From NCBI GenBank assembly GCA_964016885.1, contig OZ024740.1:95728001-95792000 (forward strand): a stretch of 64,000 bases of DNA. The letters run 5' to 3'. Of this stretch, positions 7,359 to 63,092 are shown one piece after another. Both the position numbers and the translations under genes were made by a program. The DNA is from Eledone cirrhosa (taxonomy: Eukaryota). Positions within the stretch are counted from its first letter, which is position 1. Every line of letters starts with the position of its first letter. The notes below the pieces were generated by a model, which was given only the letters and a program-made list of their open reading frames with translations, was not told the origin of the DNA and did no database searches.

Positions 7359-7604
7359 CGAAGGAGTTGTGGTAAGGAACCAGATAGACCATAATGCACC
7401 AGAGTACTCCATACTTAGGGTAGTAGAGTGGGTAATATATATATATATAAGTAAGATGTATGGTAGGACGTATGTGAATCGCGATGATCACGTCTGACTT
7501 ACCAAATATGTGACGGTAGCTAGTTAAGCTCTATGGGTATACGCGGAGCAGAAATATTAGTGAAAAAGAACAAAGGAACTATTATGACATTATAACAAGT
7601 TTAT

Positions 7605-22399: not shown

Positions 22400-25200
22400 T
22401 AAAAAAGTTAATAGATGTTAAAAACTAAAGGTTTAATTTTAAATAAAATGTTTGGACTAAAGTTTCTTCCAAAACAAGATAGAACTAACCTACAATACAA
22501 ACACCATTCACTCCAGAAGAAATCAACACTGACCACAGGAAATCCCAACTAAACTTCCCCACATTAAAAACTACAACAGGTCGCACCCCCAATACTACAA
22601 AACACAACCCCACAACATCAACACTATGCATCCCAAAAGGAACCCACCCAGACTACATGAACCCACAACAGAACCCTTACACAATAACAACTACAACAGA
22701 TACCACTCTCATCAGCACATCAACTCTCATGTAAAAACAAATTACAGACCAATACAAAACAGACACGCAGACTAAAATTACAACCAAAACAACATTCCTT
22801 TTTTAGGAACAAGACTGAAATACCAGGACACACGATGGCCCCCACTCATGAGAAGCCGAAGATAATTAACCTTTCAAATATATCACTAACTAACACACAA
22901 ATTAATATATTAAGTAAGGGACTGAAATATACACCCACACCATAAACTCTAACTGCCCCGAAATGAAAGATGAAATAATGGAATTCTGCCGAAAACCCAG
23001 ACTAATATAATACATCTCCAATGGCACCAACACTGAAGACGAATCAATAGCCAGAAACTAAATTAAGTTCTGCCCACGAAAAGGGAAGAATAAAACAGTG
23101 GACATCTACTGCGAAAGCACCATCACCTTTTGAACAAATCACAAATAAACACAGGAAATAGAACCTCTCCAAACGGAAATGGAAGGAATTATTCATACTG
23201 CGTAACAACACTTATATAACCATGAACGAAGCTGGTAAAGGGAGCATTGTGGTCATTATGGACACTGACTACTATAGAAATATGTCACTTAAAATCTGAC
23301 ACAACAAATAATATGGAAAAAAACTGCAAACTACAAACAAATTAAAACAATGGGGAACCTCCTTGCATTACTACAAAAATACCGCAGTAGCCTAACCACA
23401 AAATATTTGAATACATATGCCATTTCAAATGTAATACAAGTGCTTTCTACGGCTTACCAAAGATACATAAATGTAAACTCATAAGCAATGCCTGCGACAG
23501 TTCGGCTAACAAATACATACAATTAATACCACCAGAAGACTTAAAACTCAGACCAATTATAGCAGGCCCTGCATGTTCCTGGACATCCTACTAAAGCCCT
23601 TACTAAACCATATACAGAGCTACATACGGGATGACCTGGATATGCTGAACCACATATCCAAAACAGTAAGTGAAAACAATATTCTTATCTCTTTTGACGT
23701 AGTAAACATCAACACTAACATACCCCATATCTATGGAATAACAGCAATCCAGTTTTGGTTAGACACTCACCAATCTGAAATACCAACATCCATCAACAAA
23801 AACTTCATTATTGATGGGCTGCGATTTATCTTACAGAATAATTTATTTAATTTCAATGCCTCAACATACCGTCAAATCTCAGGAACTGCAATGGGCACAA
23901 AGGGATTCCACAAACAACAAATCTACAATCAATCCATTCTATTCTTCGGAGACTCTTTCCTTACACATCTCAAAAATATTTGGAAGAGATACATAGACGA
24001 TTGCTTCATACTATGGTAGCAAGACATAAATACACTAACTCTTTTCAAAAATATGATCAACAACATTAACTATAATATAAAATTCACAATGGAATGTAAC
24101 TCCACTGAATTAGCCTTCTTGGATATTCTCATTCTAAAAACAGATGGGAAAATAGAAACAGACATGTTTTACAAACCGACGGACTCCAAACAGTACCTCC
24201 TACTCACATCAAATGATCCAAAACATACAAAACGTAACATGTATTTCAATTTAGCCAAACGTATATGCACCAAAGTATCAGACCCAGCTAAACGGGACGA
24301 AAGACTAAATGAACTCAAAGACACACTTACCTTAAGCGCCTTCCCACTTGACATAATTAATAACGGAATAGACAAAGCAAAACACGCAAATGTTCATCAA
24401 CCCAACATCCCAAAGCACAGAACCACAAACAATACCTTACCATATGTATCCACGTTCAACCTCAGAAACACGCAAATGTTCGACCTCCTACACAAAAACC
24501 TTCCCGTTCTATTTAAAGATGAATAAAGGAAACACATTCTAGAAACACACAAGATCATCAAAAGCAAAAGGCAACCAAAATCAGTAATACACATTCTCAC
24601 TGGAACAAAGATACACAAACTTATCTCCAACCTTACGGTAACAAAATGCGGGAGAACAAGCTGTGGAACACGCCTATACTTAACGGAAGGACATAAATTC
24701 ACGTTTAAAGATGGCCAAACTTTCACAGTGAAAAACAAGTTCACTTGCAACTCGAAGAACCTGATATATGCAATCACATGCGGTGACTGTCGACATACTT
24801 ATATAAGATTGACGAGGGTGTCATTACGCAAAATAATGACCATCCATCCCCAACAAAACCGAGACATAAACATAAAGAAAACCCCCTTAAGTAGCCACTT
24901 TGCAGATTGTGAAGGAATGACTCTACCCAACTTTAAAATCTTCCCCCTTTACAAGTGCTCCTATTCTTTCAATCAACAACAGAAAATATATAAGGAAAAT
25001 CTATTCACATTTAAACCAAAACTAAATATGTAATCACCTTTGTTAGACCCTCCCCACGCCCAACCCCCCTCACACACCACAAAGTAATTTTTAGTTTTGA
25101 ACAAATTTTTGATTTTTTTGGAAAAAACATTTAATTTCGCACCACAAAGGGATCTGTAACAAACCGGCTGAAAACACCCACACACCACAACCCCCTTCCC
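22400..25200 (+). mobile_element. Near full-length decayed PLE (Neptune-like)
   Basis: KIINLS..ILSKGLKYTPTP, FYGLPKIHK, RPIIAG, SFDVVNINTNIP, GTAMGT, WKRYIDDCF, FLDILI, CGRTSCGT linker and NLIYAITC..C..TYI endonuclease; frameshifted. Confidence 0.9.
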
Positions 25201-25251
25201 GCCCACACATATATGTGGACAGTTTTATTTATATATATATATATATATATT

Positions 25252-25338
<87 letters not shown>

Positions 25339-25363
25339 ATATATAAATATATATATATATATA

Positions 25364-26500
25364 TTTCGTTTCTGAATTTGTTTAGCAATATTCTTTACCT
25401 GAAAACGTGTGTTGAAACCGATATTGTTATGCTTTGGGAGAGTGATGTTGCCAATCAGAAACACACGCACCAGTAGTTTTCACTTCAATTTATTATAAAT
25501 TAAATTTATAAATTTATAAATTTGCGGTTGGTTGGTTGGTTGGTTCCACAACTAAGCGATTGTTCATATATTGTCAAAGTTATTTTGTCACACATTATGT
25601 GACCTCTTCAGTGACCGGGGATACTTTTCTTTGTGTTTGTGCCTCTCCTTTATTCTGTCCTACGCCATCTTGTTTTTGTGTGTGTTGTGTGCTTAGTGTG
25701 CGCATGTGTTACATCCGGGTGTCTGTGTCTGTTTATATTTGTTTATTTATTTGTTTATTTAGATATTACTGGTTGGTTGTTTGTTCTATGTGTATGTGTG
25801 TTTTCATTTTGTCCTTAATTGTAAGATGTGGTGTTGCTGTTCCATTAATGTTTTCTATTTAATTTTGGTAGGAGTTCATTTATGTTTATTGCATCTGTGA
25901 TTTGTCTAAACATTGCGTCTTTTTCTGTGTGTAGAATATATTTTTATTTCTATGTTATCTAATTTTACCTTATGTTCTATTTTAGCATGTTGGTGGAGTA
26001 CAGATCATTCTTTACTATATTGAAGCTCTCGCCAGTTTTCATTTACCCGTACCACTATACTACGAGCTGTCTCACCTATCTACACTATATTCTTATCACT
26101 ACATTGTACTTCAGTACATCTTATGCTATATACTACATTTCTAGATTTACAGTTAATATGGGGGATTAGTTTACAGATTATAGATTTCTTATCTATACAG
26201 CGAGGTCTTTGAAAAGGGTATGTATTGCTAATAAGTGTTTTTATGGAGGTACCTGGTCTTTCTACTATCTTAATATTGAGTTTATGTTTATTAGGGCCGT
26301 TCTAAATGTGTAAGCTAATTCACCTCTAGGGTTTGTATCGATGAACATTACAGTATGGTATTTATGGCTATCATACCATGAGTTTATTATATTAACCTTA
26401 CTCCTAGTTCTTTCTATTCTATTCCAAAATGTGCTCCTATACAAGGGACAGGTCCATTTGTATCATTATTTACCATGTCTTCCAATTTGGTTCTGTGTCC
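25364..26500 (-). mobile_element. PLE group A 3' fragment with pLTR and decayed HHR at 25573..25615
   Basis: Reverse-complement homolog of 40850..42003; (TA)n on both sides. Confidence 0.9.
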
Positions 26501-30178: not shown

Positions 30179-30881
30179 ACCACACACACACATATATATA
30201 TATATATGGAGAGAGGGGGAGATGTACGATAGGTGCAAATGCATTGCGACCAAAGGAGGTTTGCTACGATGAGCACTCGAATGTCATGGGGAGCAGTGTA
30301 TCAATAATAATATCAAAAGTGATCAAAGATTCAGTATTGCACCATTTACATATTTAGTTACATATTACATGTTTCACTGGTGATCAGCTCGAGGAAATAT
30401 CGATTAAAGTTCGATCCAGACTCTGGGAACGGAAGCTCCTCAGATATGTGTTCGCATCTATACGAACGTCCAAATGTCGTTGAAATATATAAATATATAT
30501 ATATATATGTGTGTGTGAATGCGCGCGCGCGTGTGTGTGTAGTCAAGATATGAAATATATTGGGGTGATGAATGTATGGAATTTCATAAAATTGTAGGAA
30601 TCTCAAACGCGAAGATACCTGTAAAGAGCCAGTTGCTATTATGATTAGCAAAAAATCGGGTTCAAATATAACCCCGCATGAGCAGAACAACAGACACGGA
30701 ATTAGGGAGAGAGTGTGTGCGCTAAAGAAACAGAGAAAACGGTATACGAGGAGAAACTAGAGAAGTAGAGAGTGAAGAGAAGAAATGTCGAAATGAGAAC
30801 GACAGAGAAAACATTTCACATGGAGAATTACGAAAGATTAAACAGTCGAAAAGTGTTGAAGAACGTACAATATATAAAGAA

Positions 30882-42364: not shown

Positions 42365-42593
42365 CTTTCACTCGTGTAGGACACCTCGGTTATTTTTCAT
42401 TTTGTAAAAAAACCTCACTTTCTAATACATATATATATATAGGCACACGAGACTATATATATATATATATTGCACTGATTCTCTTTTTTCTGCGATATCA
42501 TACTCTGCTCTAAGAGAGCCTACCGCAAATGGACACTTTAAGCATCCAACACCATTTATCTATCTATGTATATATACACATAATATATATATA

Positions 42594-42656
<63 letters not shown>

Positions 42657-45158: not shown

Positions 45159-45233
45159 TGCCTCGTCTGACGAACGAATGAAGACGTTTTCTTTCGTATT
45201 CGCCTCATTTGGGAAACCTCTGGTAACGAGGTA
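45159..45233 (+). ncRNA. Type I hammerhead ribozyme with extended stem II
   Basis: TGCCTCGT-CTGACGA-A-CGAATGA...TCATTTG-G-GAAA-CCTCTGG-TA-ACGAGGTA. Confidence 0.85.
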
Positions 45234-52373: not shown

Positions 52374-52580
52374 TGTGTAGTGTATTTAGTGTATACGTTC
52401 GTATATGTGCGGGTACAGGTGTCGCGCGTGTATATATGTACGTGCATATGTATATGCATGCATGGTAGATATTTCCGCGTATGCACGTGTATGTACGTAT
52501 ATATATGCATGTAAGTATATATTTAATTTTATTGATTTTAATAACCTCTGTCATTTTCGTTCTACTAATTTATTTACCTA
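48765..52580 (+). mobile_element. Near full-length decayed Naiad-like PLE: pLTR 48765..49860, ORF ~49890..51950, partial pLTR
   Basis: FLKRLRWRAY, HYDKTGNVY, RLINPTMSDLG, FYRDDE and CNC..RVDCPLSGKCL motifs; 48765..49450 repeated at 51875..52580; decayed HHR at 49684..49734. Confidence 0.92.
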
Positions 52581-52583
52581 ACG

Positions 52584-52650
<67 letters not shown>

Positions 52651-52660
<10 letters not shown>

Positions 52661-53637
52661 ATACATGCTAGTGTACGTATGTATACGTATATGGGTGTAC
52701 GTATACATACTTATATTTAAGCATCAGCCGTACTAAGAGTGGGAAATGACCTTTCATTTTTTTCCATTTATCGTTTTCGGTACACCCGGCCGACAAAATC
52801 ACTTGATATGCTAATTTAGCTGCTCAGCCGTTAATATGCATAAGGTAGGTTTACACTTTCAAATGTGCAATCGACTGACAGGAAGGTATACAGGGCTGAT
52901 GACAGCTGATAAGCTAGAAACTAGTTCATCGTTGCTTAGTCTGTGTTGAATAAAAGAGCAACGGTTGTTGCCGAATGCCGAACACTGTACGGCTACTGAT
53001 TCTTGATGTTTGTTTACAAACAGAGCGGGCATTGTAATAAATATTCGGTAAATCCTTACGTACATATATGTGTGTGTGCATGTATGTATGTATATACATA
53101 CTAATGTTACGTCTGTATACATATATGTATGTACGTATACATACTTATATTTAAGTATCAGCCGTACTAAGAGTGAGAACTGAAATATCATTTTTTTCCA
53201 TTTATCGTTTTCGGTACACCCGGCCGACTGACTCACGCGATATGCAAATTGGGCTGCTCAGCCGTTAATATGCATAAGAAAGGTATATACTTTCAAACGT
53301 TCACTCGACTGACAGTATGGTATACGCCGCTGATGACAGCTGATAATCTAGAAACTAGTTCATCGTTCCTTAGTCGTTGTTGAACAAAAGAGCAGCATTA
53401 GTTGCCGAACAATGTACGGCTACTGATTCGGTTGATTGTTTACAAATAGACCGTGCATTGTAATAAATGTTCGGTAAACCCATACGTACATATATATATA
53501 TATATATATAAGTGTGCATGTATGTGTGTATATATATACTAGTGTACATCTGTATACATATATGTATGTACGTATACATATTTATATTTAAGTATCAGCC
53601 GTACTAAGAGTGAGAAATGACATTTCCTTTTTTCCAT
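52651..53637 (+). mobile_element. ORF-less 434 bp tandem repeat (~2.3 units) with one minimal hammerhead per full unit
   Basis: CAGCCGTACTAAGAGTG recurs at ~52725, ~53159 and ~53596; CTGATGA-CAGCTGATAAGCTA-GAAA-CTAG-TT-CATCG at 52890..52932 and a variant at 53324..53366. Confidence 0.82.
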
Positions 53638-56124
53638 ATATATATATATGGATATATATATATAGAATTCACATGGATCAAAGTTCTGTTCAAACCATTT
53701 ATTAGCTCACAATTGTTTCGTCCAAACCGAGGTTCCAAACCCTCGGAGCGATTTTTCAATGATTGTTTACATACATGACCTCCTTTCCAACACAGGAGAC
53801 ATACAGATACATATGTATATATTAATGCACGGTGGGGTGACATCCATTATAATATGTTTGCATGGCAATTTAAATTCAAAAATTAAAATCATATTAGAAC
53901 AAAATTAAAATACAACATCGGCAGTTTACGAAGATAATGCAGTCAGTTGTTAGTCAGTTGTAGTAATTCGTGCATGCAATAGTTACACGTATATATATAT
54001 ATGTGTGTGTGTGTATAGATTGACACATACTTACGTTTATCTGCGTGGTTTAATCAATAACCTGTGTGTGTTTGTGTATGTGTGTGTGTTCTGAAATGTC
54101 ACCTCTGCCGATACTAATTCTATTTGTAAAATGCGATTAGCTTGTTGATATTTACGATTTGGATGATGGATACATTTTGACTGGTTCAAATATAAAATAC
54201 AAAGGAAAATACAAATGAAACTGCATCAACACATACCGCAATTTGCTTAATGCTCAGAATGAATTCATGCAGAAATTAAATGTGACTTCTATGTTGCTTT
54301 TATTATCTGTTGATGTCCACTTCATCCTTAAGGGCTCGCTAAAATAAAGCACCAATAATGCACTGGGTTAATTGCTGGCCTTGTGCAAAAAGTAGAAACA
54401 ATTATCTGTTCTTGTTTGATAATATTTATTCAAATGTATATGTATGCAACTATGAACTAGAATGTTCTATATGTTGATCTTCTACTTGAATATTCTTCCC
54501 GTCATCATCATCTCTGAATAATCATACCTTTAAATTACTGTTGAAGGTGACATCCACTCATGCAATGTCCAAATATATGCGATGCTCTATCCTCTCCATC
54601 TAAGTAACTTCGCTTGTATAAGAGATATGTTAAATATAACAAACATGCCTGAAACAAACGTCAAAATCGCAATCAGATAAAATCTTCGTTAGGTACACTG
54701 TGTAATCGCCTGTGGTACGCTCAATATATCTATATCTACGACTGACCACATAGAATATTATATCTATATGTTGTCATTGAAGGAAAAATAATAATTTTGT
54801 TTAGAATGGTGATACTACTAAATCTATATTCAAATCTTACGCCAAATTACATATTTATATCTTTATCTTGACTGTAGCATTTGAGAGGGGAGACTTGACC
54901 CAAAGTATATTATACAGTTATTCATGGTACACAAACTTTCGACAACACAGTTGATTGTTCATTAGACTATATACTCAGCAATGTGCATTCTCAAAAGTCG
55001 CAATACAACTAAACAATTCTGATTTATTGTCTATTATAGACTTGTATAAATTGTGTGATACACACACATATACAGCGTGGAATTCACGAAAATATTCTGG
55101 ACATTTTTAGAACATCTAATTAAATATAATCATATATGATATAGGTACAAACCGTAAAAGTGTAAGATAATTAGATCAGCCTCAGTAGATTTGTTTTAGA
55201 AATAATCGCAGTATGTTTATGATGTCAAAGAGACAATTGCACCATATATTCCCATTAATTTGGTATTGACTACAAATCCCACCGAGTGTGACTTTACATT
55301 TTTCTCATTTCGGAGTGTATTGATGAGCCATAGTATATTTACTTATCTGCAATGTTAAATCATTGGATGCTCACTGATAAACAGTCAATACCATAACTTG
55401 TTTCTCGTTATGACAAAATAGTTATGTATATGAATTTTGGAGTCTAAAATAGCTATTTCAAGTCATTTAAATGATTATCTATGACTTTTAAAATGATTAT
55501 ATTTCCTCTCTTCGTTTAAATATTATTATTATCCATATTCTGTAACAGAATTATATTTCCCTATTTCGTTTAAATATTAGAGGAAATTAAATGCAGAATT
55601 TCTGCAGATATTATTGAATTGATATTTTCTGAATGACAGCGGAAATTTGCTGCATTATGGTCAGATATTCATAAAACAAAAGCCTCAACATTTTCTGAGA
55701 CAAAGAAATAAGTATAAAAACATATTGAGAATATTATTTACTGCCAAGGAAAATTGGCTAACAAACAATAGGTGCAGACGAAGATTGGATAAATGGATCT
55801 AGATCTGTGGTAAACAGATATTTCTAAATAAGGAAGTAAATTTATTTGATTAATTTAGATTATTTGAAGAGAATTAATTCGATTTTTAGACAGTTACCAA
55901 TCCTATATATTTTCATTTGAAATTAAATGTTCAAGGTTTAGTATAATAGCAAATGCCTATAATCAGAAATACACTTTTAGAAATAGGGCAATATATATTT
56001 CTTAAATTGAAATAAACAAATCACTTTGCTGTGATTGGTTTCGAAATAGTAAAAAAATACCTTTAATAAATACCACAGGCAGGAAATATGGACAAATAGC
56101 TGGAATAATAAATATACTGCCATT

Positions 56125-59700: not shown

Positions 59701-59881
59701 GCATTGCGAAGACTGGCGCGCAAAGCCATCAGAGGTCGCACCTGGATGTAGACGAAGAAGTAGGTGAATGCATAAAATGCTTGATCTCCGTTGGTCTTAC
59801 TTCAGGAAATAGGTGGTTGACAAGCAGGCTTTTTCCATCCGATAGACGTTCCGGATGTCAAGCCACGACACTCCCAGGAAT

Positions 59882-59922
<41 letters not shown>

Positions 59923-59942
59923 ACACATATATATATATATAT

Positions 59943-60721
59943 ATATAGATAATTTAATATATCAACTAACATAAGCGCACAGATGCACGCCCATGCTAGC
60001 AAATACACAGGTTATGTCATAGTACCTAGGTGGTTCAATGCAGGAGAATGCAGAACAATAATATAAAAGACGTAAAATAAGAAAATATTTTCCAAAAAAA
60101 TTTAAAAAAAATATTTTACTTACTTACTTAAATTTTCACTCCAACTAATTAGTTTCTGCAATGGGATAAAGACAGTTACGTAATCCAACTGTCGAGAATT
60201 CATTGCGTCATCAGGGAGTCTATTCTCAGTTAAGTCTCCAGGCAATGCGCGGACACTGGCGGCTCATATAAAAATAATAATAATTCGGTAGATCGAACAG
60301 CTGGCGAGGACTGGATTCTATGCACCGAAATTCTCACTGCTTCAGGTCAAATGGCCGATTCTAAAGAATCAATCACGTGACACAGAGGCTAGTTAGAAGG
60401 AATGAGATGGTAAGATGACTGACGCCTACTAACACCCCAAACAAATTTTTTTAGAAGTGGTTTTGGCAAGTTTGCTCGACAAATCAGTGATTTGGAGATA
60501 AATATAGATAATTTAATATATCAACTAACATAAGCGCACAGATGCACGCCCATGCCAGCAAATACACAGGTTATGTCATAGTACCTAGGTGGTTCAATGC
60601 AGGAGAATGCAGAACAATAATATAAAAGACGTAAAATAAGAAAATATTTTCCAAAAAAATTTAAAAAGAATTTTTTACTTACTTACTTAAATTTTTGTTC
60701 TGCATTCTCCTGCATTGAACC
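59943..60721 (-). mobile_element. ORF-less 559 bp monomer with ~190 bp direct repeats, an HHR and a 27 bp inverted head
   Basis: 59943..60136 repeated at 60502..60695; 60695..60721 is an inverted piece of the repeat. Confidence 0.85.
60138..60219 (-). ncRNA. Type I hammerhead ribozyme with long two-helix stem II
   Basis: ACTCC-CTGATGA-C-GCAATG..GACAGTT..AACTGTC..CATTGC-A-GAAA-CTAATTAG-TT-GGAGT. Confidence 0.88.
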
Positions 60722-60750: not shown

Positions 60751-60830
<80 letters not shown>

Positions 60831-60833
<3 letters not shown>

Positions 60834-61290
60834 TTAATATAGAATAGCTTCTACATGACTAGAACTGTTTCATTTGTGAGAAATCACTAGGAAGCTGGCT
60901 GTCCAAGTAAAGGGTAGTATTTATCTCTAACCTTATCTGGTGGTACGAGAGGGCGGGGATTGGGATGGGTGTAGGTCATATGTTGAAGGATTTAAAATCT
61001 AATTCTTTAAAGCTATAATATTAACAAAGGCAGAAAGAATACTGTAAACAAGTTCAAAATTGGAATACCACTCCTTGTTTATCTCTTGAAGAAACAATGC
61101 GTGTCGGACAGGGGTCTACAGGATGGGTGGGAATCAATGGTTTAAAGAAAAGGCAAATTCTTTAGAGGGTAATTCTTTAAGGCTGAAATAAGGGTGTTCA
61201 AAGGCAGAAAAGATTCCATCATCTGATTCAACTGTTGGGGTTAACGCCCAATAGTGAAGTTTCTCTTAATATATATTCCAGGTGTCCACA
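60831..61290 (-). mobile_element. Probable PLE 3' end with decayed HHR at 60846..60896 (related fragment at 7106..7132)
   Basis: AGCTTC-CTAGTGA-TTTCTCACAAAT-GAAA-CAGTTCTAGTCATG-TA-GAAGCT; core departs from CTGATGA. Confidence 0.6.
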
Positions 61291-61584
61291 AACACATTCA
61301 CACACGCGCGCCCACTTACACACATACACACACTTACACGCGCACACAGATGTAGGCACACACCAAACAAACATACATAATGGTACATACACCCATACAT
61401 ACAAATACATACATACACATATACATATATATGTGTACATACATACGCATACATATACATATATATATACATATATATATATATATACATCATAAATCAT
61501 GTCTTTAGAATCATCAGATAACATATATACTATTTCTTCTTCTAATTAGCATAATTCACCATATAGTTTGTCTCCTGATAGTTT

Positions 61585-61661
61585 GTCTCCTGATGAATCC
61601 TAACTCAGGACATTCCTATTATTTGGATGTCTAAAAATACGGATGAAACCATGGTAGAGAT
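61585..61661 (+). ncRNA. Type I hammerhead ribozyme
   Basis: GTCTC-CTGATGA-ATCC..GACATTCC..GGATGTC..GGAT-GAAA-CCATGG-TA-GAGAT. Confidence 0.9.
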
Positions 61662-62241
61662 AAATTACGGTATGTACGCATTTCTTCTAAGTTTAATTTT
61701 ACACCTAATTGTGTATGTTTGATGATATATTTAGTCAGTTTCTACATGCTGTCGAAATATTGGATAAATACTCGATTGGGGCCACCGCGAAGAGGCTACG
61801 TTCGGTTATTTGTAGGAGATTTCTCCATAAGAGCCTTTCTTCTTATTGGTTGATCTAATTGATTTTTTATATGGTTAATTATGCTAATTAGAAGAAGAAA
61901 TAGTATATATTTTATCTGATGATTCGAAATACATGATTTATGATATATTGCTCTGATTTTTTAATTTACTAATTCTTCATAGAGCTTAAAAGTGACCAGT
62001 TGCAACATATATATATCTATAACTTTGTGTATATGTTAACCTTTATATTTAATAATCTCCCGATAGGTTGAGATTAAATTTGGCGATATGTGGCTGCGCT
62101 TTCTAGCAGCAGGCCTACCCGCCGTAAGCAACCAATCACATTATTTCTGGCTTGACCAAAGCCACATAGCGATTCTTAGCCATTTTTTAATCTATTTTTG
62201 GCGGGATCGGATTGAAAAACTAGATTTCTGATTTTGAGTTT

Positions 62242-62318
62242 GTCTCCTGATGAATCCAAACTCAGGACATTCCTATTATTTGGATGTCTAAAAATAGGGA
62301 TGAAACCATGGTAGAGAT
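62242..62318 (+). ncRNA. Type I hammerhead ribozyme (second tandem copy)
   Basis: Same core and stems as 61585..61661; the differences fall in unpaired parts of stem II. Confidence 0.9.
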
Positions 62319-62706
62319 ATAATTACGGAATGTACGCATTTCTTCTAAGTTTAATTGTACACCTAATTGTGTATGTTTGATGATATATTTAGTCAGTTTC
62401 TACATGCTGCGAAATGTTGGATAAATACTCGATTGGGGCGACCGAGAAGAGGCTACGTTCGGTTATTTGTCGGAGATTTCTCCATAAGAGCCTTCTTCTT
62501 ATAGGTTGATCTAATTGATTTTTATATGGTTAATTATGCTAATTAGAAGAATAAATAGTATGTATTTTATCTGATGATTCTAAAGACATGATTTATGATA
62601 TATTGCTCTGATTTTTTAATTTATTAATTCTTCATAGAGTTTAAAAGTGACCAGTTATACATATCTATAACTTATACATCTATAACTTTATGTATATGTT
62701 AACCTT

Positions 62707-62761
<55 letters not shown>

Positions 62762-62766
62762 GTCCA

Positions 62767-62818
<52 letters not shown>

Positions 62819-62951
62819 TATACACATACACAGATATATACACATACATACACATTTACACTCATACATATACATATACATACATATACACATATATTCA
62901 TATATGTACATACATATACACATACATATACACATATATATACACACACAT

Positions 62952-63022
<71 letters not shown>

Positions 63023-63092
63023 CATATACACGCACACACACACATATGTGTATACATATATATATACACATATAACTGAAGTCGTAGACTAA

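Follow-up and report, generated by a model that had tools for sequence, protein, structure and literature searches.

A non-coding 657-nt hammerhead repeat family of Eledone cirrhosa with two-armed insertions in TA repeats, probably made by Penelope-like enzymes acting in trans

The non-long-terminal-repeat (non-LTR) retrozymes of metazoans are non-coding tandem repeats with one type I hammerhead ribozyme per unit, low GC content and many dispersed copies, and they co-occur with Penelope-like elements (PLEs). In coral, mussel and axolotl their units measure 170-400 nt, dimeric hammerhead action has been shown for those of amphibians, and a dependence of retrozymes on PLEs has been proposed (Cervera and de la Pena 2020, PMC7229834). 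For vertebrates, consensus lengths of 51-972 bp have been reported, with a mean of 650 bp in ray-finned fishes, and the link with PLEs has been argued from co-occurrence and from terminal-repeat similarity (Li, Clavereau and Pollet 2026, 10.64898/2026.07.22.740005). Among cephalopods, a passage in the literature gives 235 Rfam hammerhead-1 matches for the giant squid genome. Here we analyse a stretch of 64,000 nt from Eledone cirrhosa (contig OZ024740.1, forward strand; called the window below), which carries at 61485-62711 a 1.7-unit tandem of a non-coding 657-nt repeat together with a 15-nt restart and an inverted head of about 80 nt. The 657-nt element is a new family of animal non-LTR retrozymes, and the locus is probably an old two-armed insertion of this hammerhead family, placed into (TA)n by target-primed reverse transcription with PLE enzymes acting in trans.

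The family shares all of the metazoan retrozyme features named above, and with the amphibian retrozymes it shares a weak palindromic helix III that suggests dimeric action. It differs from the metazoan retrozymes, as far as the published descriptions used here go, in a 37-nt distal hairpin of helix II that lies behind a large internal loop. The original prediction had regarded the unit as longer than is typical for animals, which holds against the 170-400 nt range (PMC7229834) only; as lengths of 51-972 bp have been reported, 657 nt is unexceptional. The plant LTR retrozymes (Cervera et al. 2016, PMC4918200) are also non-autonomous and carry hammerheads, and their circular RNAs of 600-1000 nt come near the size of our unit. 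They differ in having type III hammerheads within LTRs, a primer-binding site and a polypurine tract, and in using the enzymes of LTR elements. That description is inapplicable to our unit, which has a 657-nt period, no frame over 68 codons and abutting units, although primer-binding site and polypurine tract motifs were not searched for.

Insertions of endonuclease-bearing PLEs are described as 5' truncated and partially tandem, with an adjacent head-to-head inverted copy that is itself 5' truncated, a tail of 30-40 bp at one end only, a target that is AT-rich or a microsatellite, and inverted junctions marked by palindromes or microhomology (PMC3846280, PMC8557442); the mechanism behind this geometry has been called undefined (PMC8557442). 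The 657-nt family shows the same partial tandem, inverted 5'-truncated copy, one-sided tail and TA-rich target. It is unlike PLEs in that it has no reverse-transcriptase or endonuclease open reading frame (ORF), its tail is about 100 nt rather than 30-40 nt, its arms often exceed one full unit, and there is no similarity to a PLE terminus in 22 sampled PLE loci. The two-armed, two-end insertion pattern is not described in the passages of PMC7229834 and 10.64898/2026.07.22.740005 on which we draw.

The layout of the window copy can be followed from 61384 to 63028. The insertion target on the left is a compound (TACA)n/(TA)n microsatellite at 61384..61484 (Tandem Repeats Finder (TRF) rows 61384-61494, and the sequence itself). 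It is followed on the minus strand by a short inverted arm at 61485..61564 (61485-61565 by BLAST, 94%), which we call the A arm and which reads the unit from position 369 down to 289. On the outside this arm stops at the main 3' end of the family, ...CATGATTTATGAT, with the outermost 4-5 nt not separable from the TA repeat. Between the arms, on the plus strand at 61565..61579, lies the restart, an exact extra copy of unit positions 1-15 found by the repeat search and by TRF (pair 61565-61579 / 61580-61594; TRF 61563-61594, 2.1 copies, 100%). The long B arm then runs on the plus strand, beginning with a full, non-coding 657-nt unit at 61580..62236 (GC 33%; repeat search, BLAST) and continuing with a partial second unit at 62237..62711 (sequence, BLAST), which comprises unit positions 1-469 and stops at the B end, ...AACCTTTATAT. 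BLAST stretches this second unit to positions 1-475 (93.4%), the last bases being TA repeat; identity stops at 62711, position 469. On the right the insertion is bounded by a (TA)n microsatellite of 160 copies at 62712..63028 (TRF 62707-63028).

The period was read from two 83-nt repeats, 61580-61662 and 62237-62319, which are 98% identical and 657 nt apart from start to start, and the other blocks of the unit found by the repeat search are in the same register at 95-98%. When the unit was compared with the whole window by BLAST, it matched at this locus only. The two units are 96.0% identical over 472 aligned positions, and the inverted head is 93.8% alike to the units; by this divergence the window copy is an older insertion. 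The 657-nt tandem with two complete hammerhead cores and a palindromic stem III, from which the original prediction started, is thus borne out, and the inverted head and the restart of about 15 bp that it placed at the 5' junction are real.

The repeat belongs to a large dispersed family. A whole-unit search of the 3.0-Gb genome gave 4055 first-look candidates and 76 scored matches that were 89-100% identical, and an exact 25-mer from the 3' half of the ribozyme was found at 860 sites, compared with 0 for the reversed control. Coding capacity is lacking: the longest stop-free run of the circular unit is 68 codons, and none of the 21 ORFs of at least 150 aa in the window had a meaningful match in Pfam. 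To describe the insertions, 81 loci were sampled in two parts. Twenty-one are the independent loci among 30 returned by the unit search, from which nine were dropped (three repeats of kept insertions and six from one array on C4). For the other 60 we took the leading 60 clusters formed by the first 100 places in the 25-mer list, without the window locus, L005, an array of 28 kb and the three final clusters. Because an intact 25-mer was required, positions 68-92 are biased in the 60-locus sample.

Two arms were present at 42 of the 81 loci, always divergent and with their 3' ends outward; 37 loci were one-armed and two were odd, one of which (L069) is two insertions, since its arms are only 76-81% alike. 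The outer ends fall at two sites about 100 nt apart. End A lies at unit position ~369, where 67 arms stop by their BLAST end, and end B at ~469-475, with a few outer ends at another TA patch at 435-457. In unit 1 of the window, site A (AUGAUAUAU, unit positions 361-369, 61940..61948, plus strand) and site B (CCUUUAUAU, positions 461-469, 62040..62048, plus strand) would be, judging from the arm ends, the family's main start of reverse transcription and a second start used by the other arm. Among the two-armed loci, 34 pair A with B, six A with another end and two B with another end, and neither A+A nor B+B was seen. Single arms end at A in 34 loci, at B in two and elsewhere in one. Variable 5' ends accompany these fixed 3' ends, and the close pairs among the first 100 listed 25-mer places were (-,+) in 12 cases and (+,-) in none. 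Of 79 insertions, 66 are TA-rich on one side or both, a flank being counted as TA-rich when TA dinucleotides make up 70% or more of it.

The sites also stand out by their conservation. Over the 81 loci the least variable blocks of the unit are positions 361-400, 461-480 and 501-560 (window 61940-61979, 62040-62059 and 62080-62139), with a minor-base fraction of 0.017-0.037 versus ~0.07 overall. The first two blocks are the start sites A and B, and the third is GC-richer. A pairing of site A with site B was considered: the local fold does pair them, but no better than shuffled sequences (z=-0.87), and it was not used. As a separate observation, at ~1100-1140 of L027 (C5:84924820-84928477) the final bases of the element (ATGACATGATTTATGAT) occur once more, as a 17-nt stretch just outside the A end that is followed by the TA repeat; reverse transcription seems here to have been aborted after a first start, or to have started twice.

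The two arms of one insertion have a median identity of 97.2% (n=82 pairs) and units within one arm 97.6% (n=84), compared with 90.7% between loci (n=2676). As the arms are far more alike than the loci, each insertion is one event, copied from a single template or from templates that were nearly identical. Young insertions, whose arms are 99.5-100% alike, occur as well, and arms often contain more than one full unit. A satellite-like repeat that multiplied as DNA, through unequal crossing-over or the copying of segments, and whose hammerhead is a relic, could also give a tandem. There are long arrays of 657-664-nt units, of ~9 units at C4:193999086-194005249 and with 25-mer matches over 28 kb at C1:92985996-93014430, which is 2.8 Mb from the window, so the family also forms satellite-like arrays, and unequal crossover has been invoked for the growth of retrozyme arrays (10.64898/2026.07.22.740005). 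However, sharp 3' ends at two sites, variable 5' truncation, inverted arms that face outward and insertion into (TA)n are signatures of reverse transcription, and the closeness of arms within an insertion, far above that of copies between loci, also speaks against amplification as DNA. We therefore regard a DNA-level origin of these insertions as extremely unlikely.

The enzymes needed for reverse transcription into TA repeats could be supplied by PLEs of the same genome. PLEs are abundant in it: in a search for GIY-YIG, 150 scored matches passed the cut-off and the first-look candidates numbered 10,597. RVT_1 and/or GIY-YIG domains are found in ORFs of 844-1096 aa, and intact ORFs with both reverse-transcriptase and GIY-YIG domains are present. 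The PLE copies of this genome terminate in (TA)n and have a one-sided tail of 37-47 nt and an inverted arm; for example, the copy L050 stops ~47 nt short of L046 and L047, and the inverted arm of the PLE of L053 is extended by 37 nt. A decayed PLE ORF (reverse transcriptase and GIY-YIG) with many in-frame stops is also present in the window, at 22760-25033 on the plus strand. Over 780 aa it shares 42% identity with an intact ORF of 938 aa from another part of the genome, and it was not picked up by Pfam alone. Its end is close to (TA)69, (TA)n occupies 25226-25364, and at ~36 kb from the retrozyme it has no linkage with it.

The original prediction had itself named the possibility that the unit is the ordinary pseudo-LTR of an autonomous element. 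In this reading the element would be a PLE and the tandem its usual terminal structure. PLE terminal repeats do carry hammerheads and form partial tandems and inverted copies (PMC8557442, PMC3846280), Xenopus retrozymes resemble PLE terminal repeats (10.64898/2026.07.22.740005), and fragments of PLE ORFs lie in the flanks of 14 of the 81 family loci. Yet the units abut with a 657-nt period in every one of the 81 loci, so that no linked ORF stands between them, and the circular unit has no open frame of its own beyond the 68 codons mentioned. In all five junctions viewed, the PLE fragment is apart from the family copy; these fragments are separate insertions, because (TA)n or other non-family sequence intervenes. 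We do not claim that PLE fragments are enriched, as the window holds ~1 PLE per 64 kb and a shared targeting of TA repeats is enough to explain them. The unit was the terminus of 0 of 22 PLE loci, a small sample against more than 10,000 candidates, and the hammerheads near the sampled PLE ORFs are minimal types that are unlike that of the unit. The pseudo-LTR explanation is therefore very unlikely.

The comparison with the 22 PLE loci by BLAST brought up only a ~80% relative of the unit at L039 and L053, which was considered as a partner and rejected, being a separate neighbouring insertion behind (TA)6. In L053 (C1:91424500-91434499) at 7420-7492, the internal TA patch of this relative (unit positions 426-460) has grown into (TA)n inside the tandem, so the element's own TA patches may seed new target sites.

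The junctions between the arms give information on how the two cDNAs came to be joined. Inner arm ends are spread over the unit, with 15 of 121 (12.4%) at unit positions 1-80 where 12.2% is expected by length, and the sole clear peak is the TA patch at 461-480, with 11 of 121 ends. No inner end lies at position 78, the predicted 5' end of the RNA; the nearest are at 72 and 117. Short extra segments recur at junctions, for example in L026, L062, L067 and L078. Since the inner ends are spread and extra segments recur, the head that ends at 289 and the 15-nt restart of the window copy are ordinary products of template switching during the joining of two cDNAs. The suggestion that the reverse transcriptase switched templates at the ribozyme is thus upheld in part: switching fits the family-wide pattern, together with priming from two sides, and the location at the ribozyme is not supported by the distribution of inner ends.

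An inverted head could arise in another way, by self-priming (snap-back of one nucleic acid strand at a palindrome) rather than through separate priming at each of the two ends of a broken DNA. Self-priming has been inferred from palindromes at inverted PLE junctions (Arkhipova et al. 2013, PMC3846280), the peak of inner ends at the TA patch would suit it, and a few junctions lie at palindromes, such as that of L067 at ACCATGGT (unit positions 72 and 67). A snap-back predicts that the arms meet at one template position. However, a hand count over the 34 A+B insertions found no relation between their two inner ends, which were within 20 nt of each other in just one (L056) and within 80 nt in 11, against ~8 expected by chance; in the window the arms meet at positions 289 and 1. 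Self-priming would also leave unexplained why A is found on one side and B on the other. We consider it improbable as the source of the inverted heads, and favour two primings.

The conserved catalytic core of the type I hammerhead (RF00163, clan CL00010) can be read in both window copies, as CUGAUGA, GAAA, the A-U pair and the GUA triplet. The core features required were C3 U4 G5 A6 N7 G8 A9, G12 A13 A14, the pair A15.1-U16.1 and H17 at the cleavage site. Helix I (UGUCUC/GAGAUA) has 6 pairs in both copies and is open, which gives the type I topology. Helix II (AUCC/GGAU, 4-5 pairs) continues behind a large internal loop into an 8-bp hairpin, the distal hairpin insert measuring 37 nt. Helix III is the palindrome ACCAUGGU, closed by the A15.1-U16.1 pair, and the cleavage triplet is GUA. 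The CTGATGA/GAAA core, the stem I pairing and the palindrome in both copies are therefore as first described. From the register of the core and the GUA triplet, cuts are predicted after A61656 in motif 1 (61584..61662, plus strand; read from the sequence, the descriptor, covariation and a sub-threshold RF00163 alignment) and after A62313 in motif 2 (62241..62319, plus strand; descriptor match), 657 nt apart, so that a monomeric RNA spanning 61657..62313 on the plus strand would be excised.

A hand-written descriptor, which asked for the core, 3 or more helix II pairs, the 15.2-16.2 pair, UH and no fewer than 5 of the 6 helix I pairs, matched the window five times, two of the matches being the window copies; 200 dinucleotide shuffles gave a mean of 0.02 (maximum 1). 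Covariation was examined in 95 distinct aligned copies from the 81 loci. The structure is paired in 89.5% of cells versus 30-46% with slid partners, and eight pairs are changed on both sides, against 3.9 in shuffles, with 0 of 500 shuffles reaching the observed value, counts that overstate independence because family copies are related. Pair 10.1/11.1 is A-U in 38 copies, U-A in 11, G-C in 10 and unpaired (mostly A-A) in 36, and pair 10.5/11.5 is U-A in 43 and G-C in 14. A classical GUCC...GGAC helix II is found in more diverged subfamilies. The relative in L053 was also tried and gave no support from covariation, its stem I being mismatched and one of its copies having a mutated core.

Folding is consistent with a ribozyme that acts as a dimer. 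Twenty nucleotides around helix III do not fold alone (0 kcal/mol), and two copies form an 8-bp duplex of -13.2 kcal/mol; the dimeric hammerhead fold proposed for the tandem is therefore plausible in this model. The predicted 657-nt RNA folds at -170.6 kcal/mol, compared with -140.5 +/- 6.5 kcal/mol in 20 shuffles, none of which folds as well (z=-4.6). Self-cutting of the unit is accordingly a prediction made from these sequence features. Three sequencing runs of unknown kind from one sample gave short contigs over the repeat only, with no pile-ups of starts or ends, and are silent on expression.

Several results weigh against a locus that was made through a working ribozyme and PLE enzymes. 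Target-site duplications cannot be read, because the flanks are TA repeats, and the PLE loci sampled provided neither a terminus like the unit nor, after the L039/L053 relative was set aside, a partner. An Rfam scan of the window at the gathering score found no hammerhead, and at E<=10 over 61000-63000 it returned only miRNA-like matches on microsatellites. RF00163 could be aligned over its full length (model 1-45/45) at 61584-61662, in the same register, only in a 106-nt search, and the score of 16.4 bits (E 0.12) is below the gathering threshold of 34; this shortfall is due to the length of the helix II insert and the weakness of helix III. Every hammerhead feature is intact in 81 of 121 family copies and at least one is lost in the rest, in 46 of the 121 the closing pair 10.1/11.1 is mismatched as A-A, and helix II is broken by the large internal loop. 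In copy 2 the unconstrained fold (-20.1 kcal/mol) is better than the hammerhead-constrained fold (-13.7 kcal/mol), so that a competing hairpin, favoured by a C-to-G change at 62299, is preferred by 6.4 kcal/mol. Lower variability of the ribozyme than of the remainder of the unit is not established: the one-sided Mann-Whitney test gave p=0.033 in the unbiased 21-locus sample, and p=0.55 and 0.46 in larger samples without the seeded positions.

These results leave room for a hammerhead that is dead or irrelevant, with the element being copied from linear read-through or multimeric transcripts and with neither cutting nor circles. The sub-threshold Rfam score, the A-A mismatches, the competing fold of copy 2 and the absence of inner ends at the predicted 5' end of the RNA would all agree with this, and Naiad PLEs thrive without hammerheads (PMC8557442). 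On the other hand, helix II shows compensatory variation and the core is intact in most copies. Arms of more than one unit need a multimeric or circular template, and the missing A+A insertions are understood more readily with only one A site per template. A dead hammerhead is thus unlikely, and we continue to favour a hammerhead that takes part in making the template.

Under this favoured reading, a cycle can be proposed. Tandem copies would be transcribed; two hammerheads, paired by way of the palindromic helix III, would cleave behind A61656 and A62313 and release the 657-nt RNA, which a host tRNA ligase would probably circularise, by analogy with other retrozymes. The endonuclease of a PLE would cut a TA repeat, and the two DNA 3' ends would pair with the UAUAU patches of a single template, one at site A and the other at site B. 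From there two reverse transcriptases would proceed inwards, often past one unit, and microhomology and template switches would link their cDNAs; in the window copy this could have left the head that ends at 289 and the 15-nt restart. The PLE cut, the annealing, the inward copying and the joining are steps that we infer from the architecture of the insertions.

The total lack of A+A insertions suggests that both primers were on one template with a single A site, as a monomeric circle would have. The missing A+A class would follow equally from a multimer on which the enzyme complex keeps a fixed geometry. It is offered as a tentative possibility, to which we give clearly less than even weight, that each insertion results from two reverse transcriptases that start together on one monomeric circular 657-nt RNA, one from each cut end of the TA repeat and at two fixed sites 100 nt apart, both then travelling round the circle. 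This would account for the 0 of 42 two-armed insertions with A+A, though 34 of 37 single arms end at A, for the ability of both arms to exceed one unit, and for the two arms being as alike as neighbouring units.

The window contains other hammerhead-like repeats, none of which is similar to the 657-nt unit. On the minus strand at 59837-60695, a motif at 60137-60220 passes the descriptor and has the palindromic helix III CUAAUUAG. It sits in a ~560-nt partial tandem, in which 59939-60136 resembles 60498-60695 at 98%; this tandem adjoins (TA)40 at 60751-60830 and its sequence is unrelated to the unit. Further descriptor matches are at 45161-45231 (plus strand), part of whose flank recurs inverted at 42469-42654 (89%), and at 30360-30449 (minus strand). 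A ~434-500-nt tandem on the plus strand at 52580-53641, with units ~85% alike, has CTGATGA...GAAAC at 52896 and 53330 and fails the descriptor because it is without helix I.

To summarise, a large (657-nt) family with an unusual extended helix II is added to the animal retrozymes, and its hundreds of insertions provide countable evidence for a PLE-like geometry, two-armed and one-tailed, in retrozymes. The strict pairing of A ends with B ends is a constraint on any model of Penelope integration, and one that can be tested with a small non-coding template. If two reverse transcriptases do start together on one circle, the thousands of insertions in this genome would be a natural readout of Penelope integration, including the origin of the one-sided tail.

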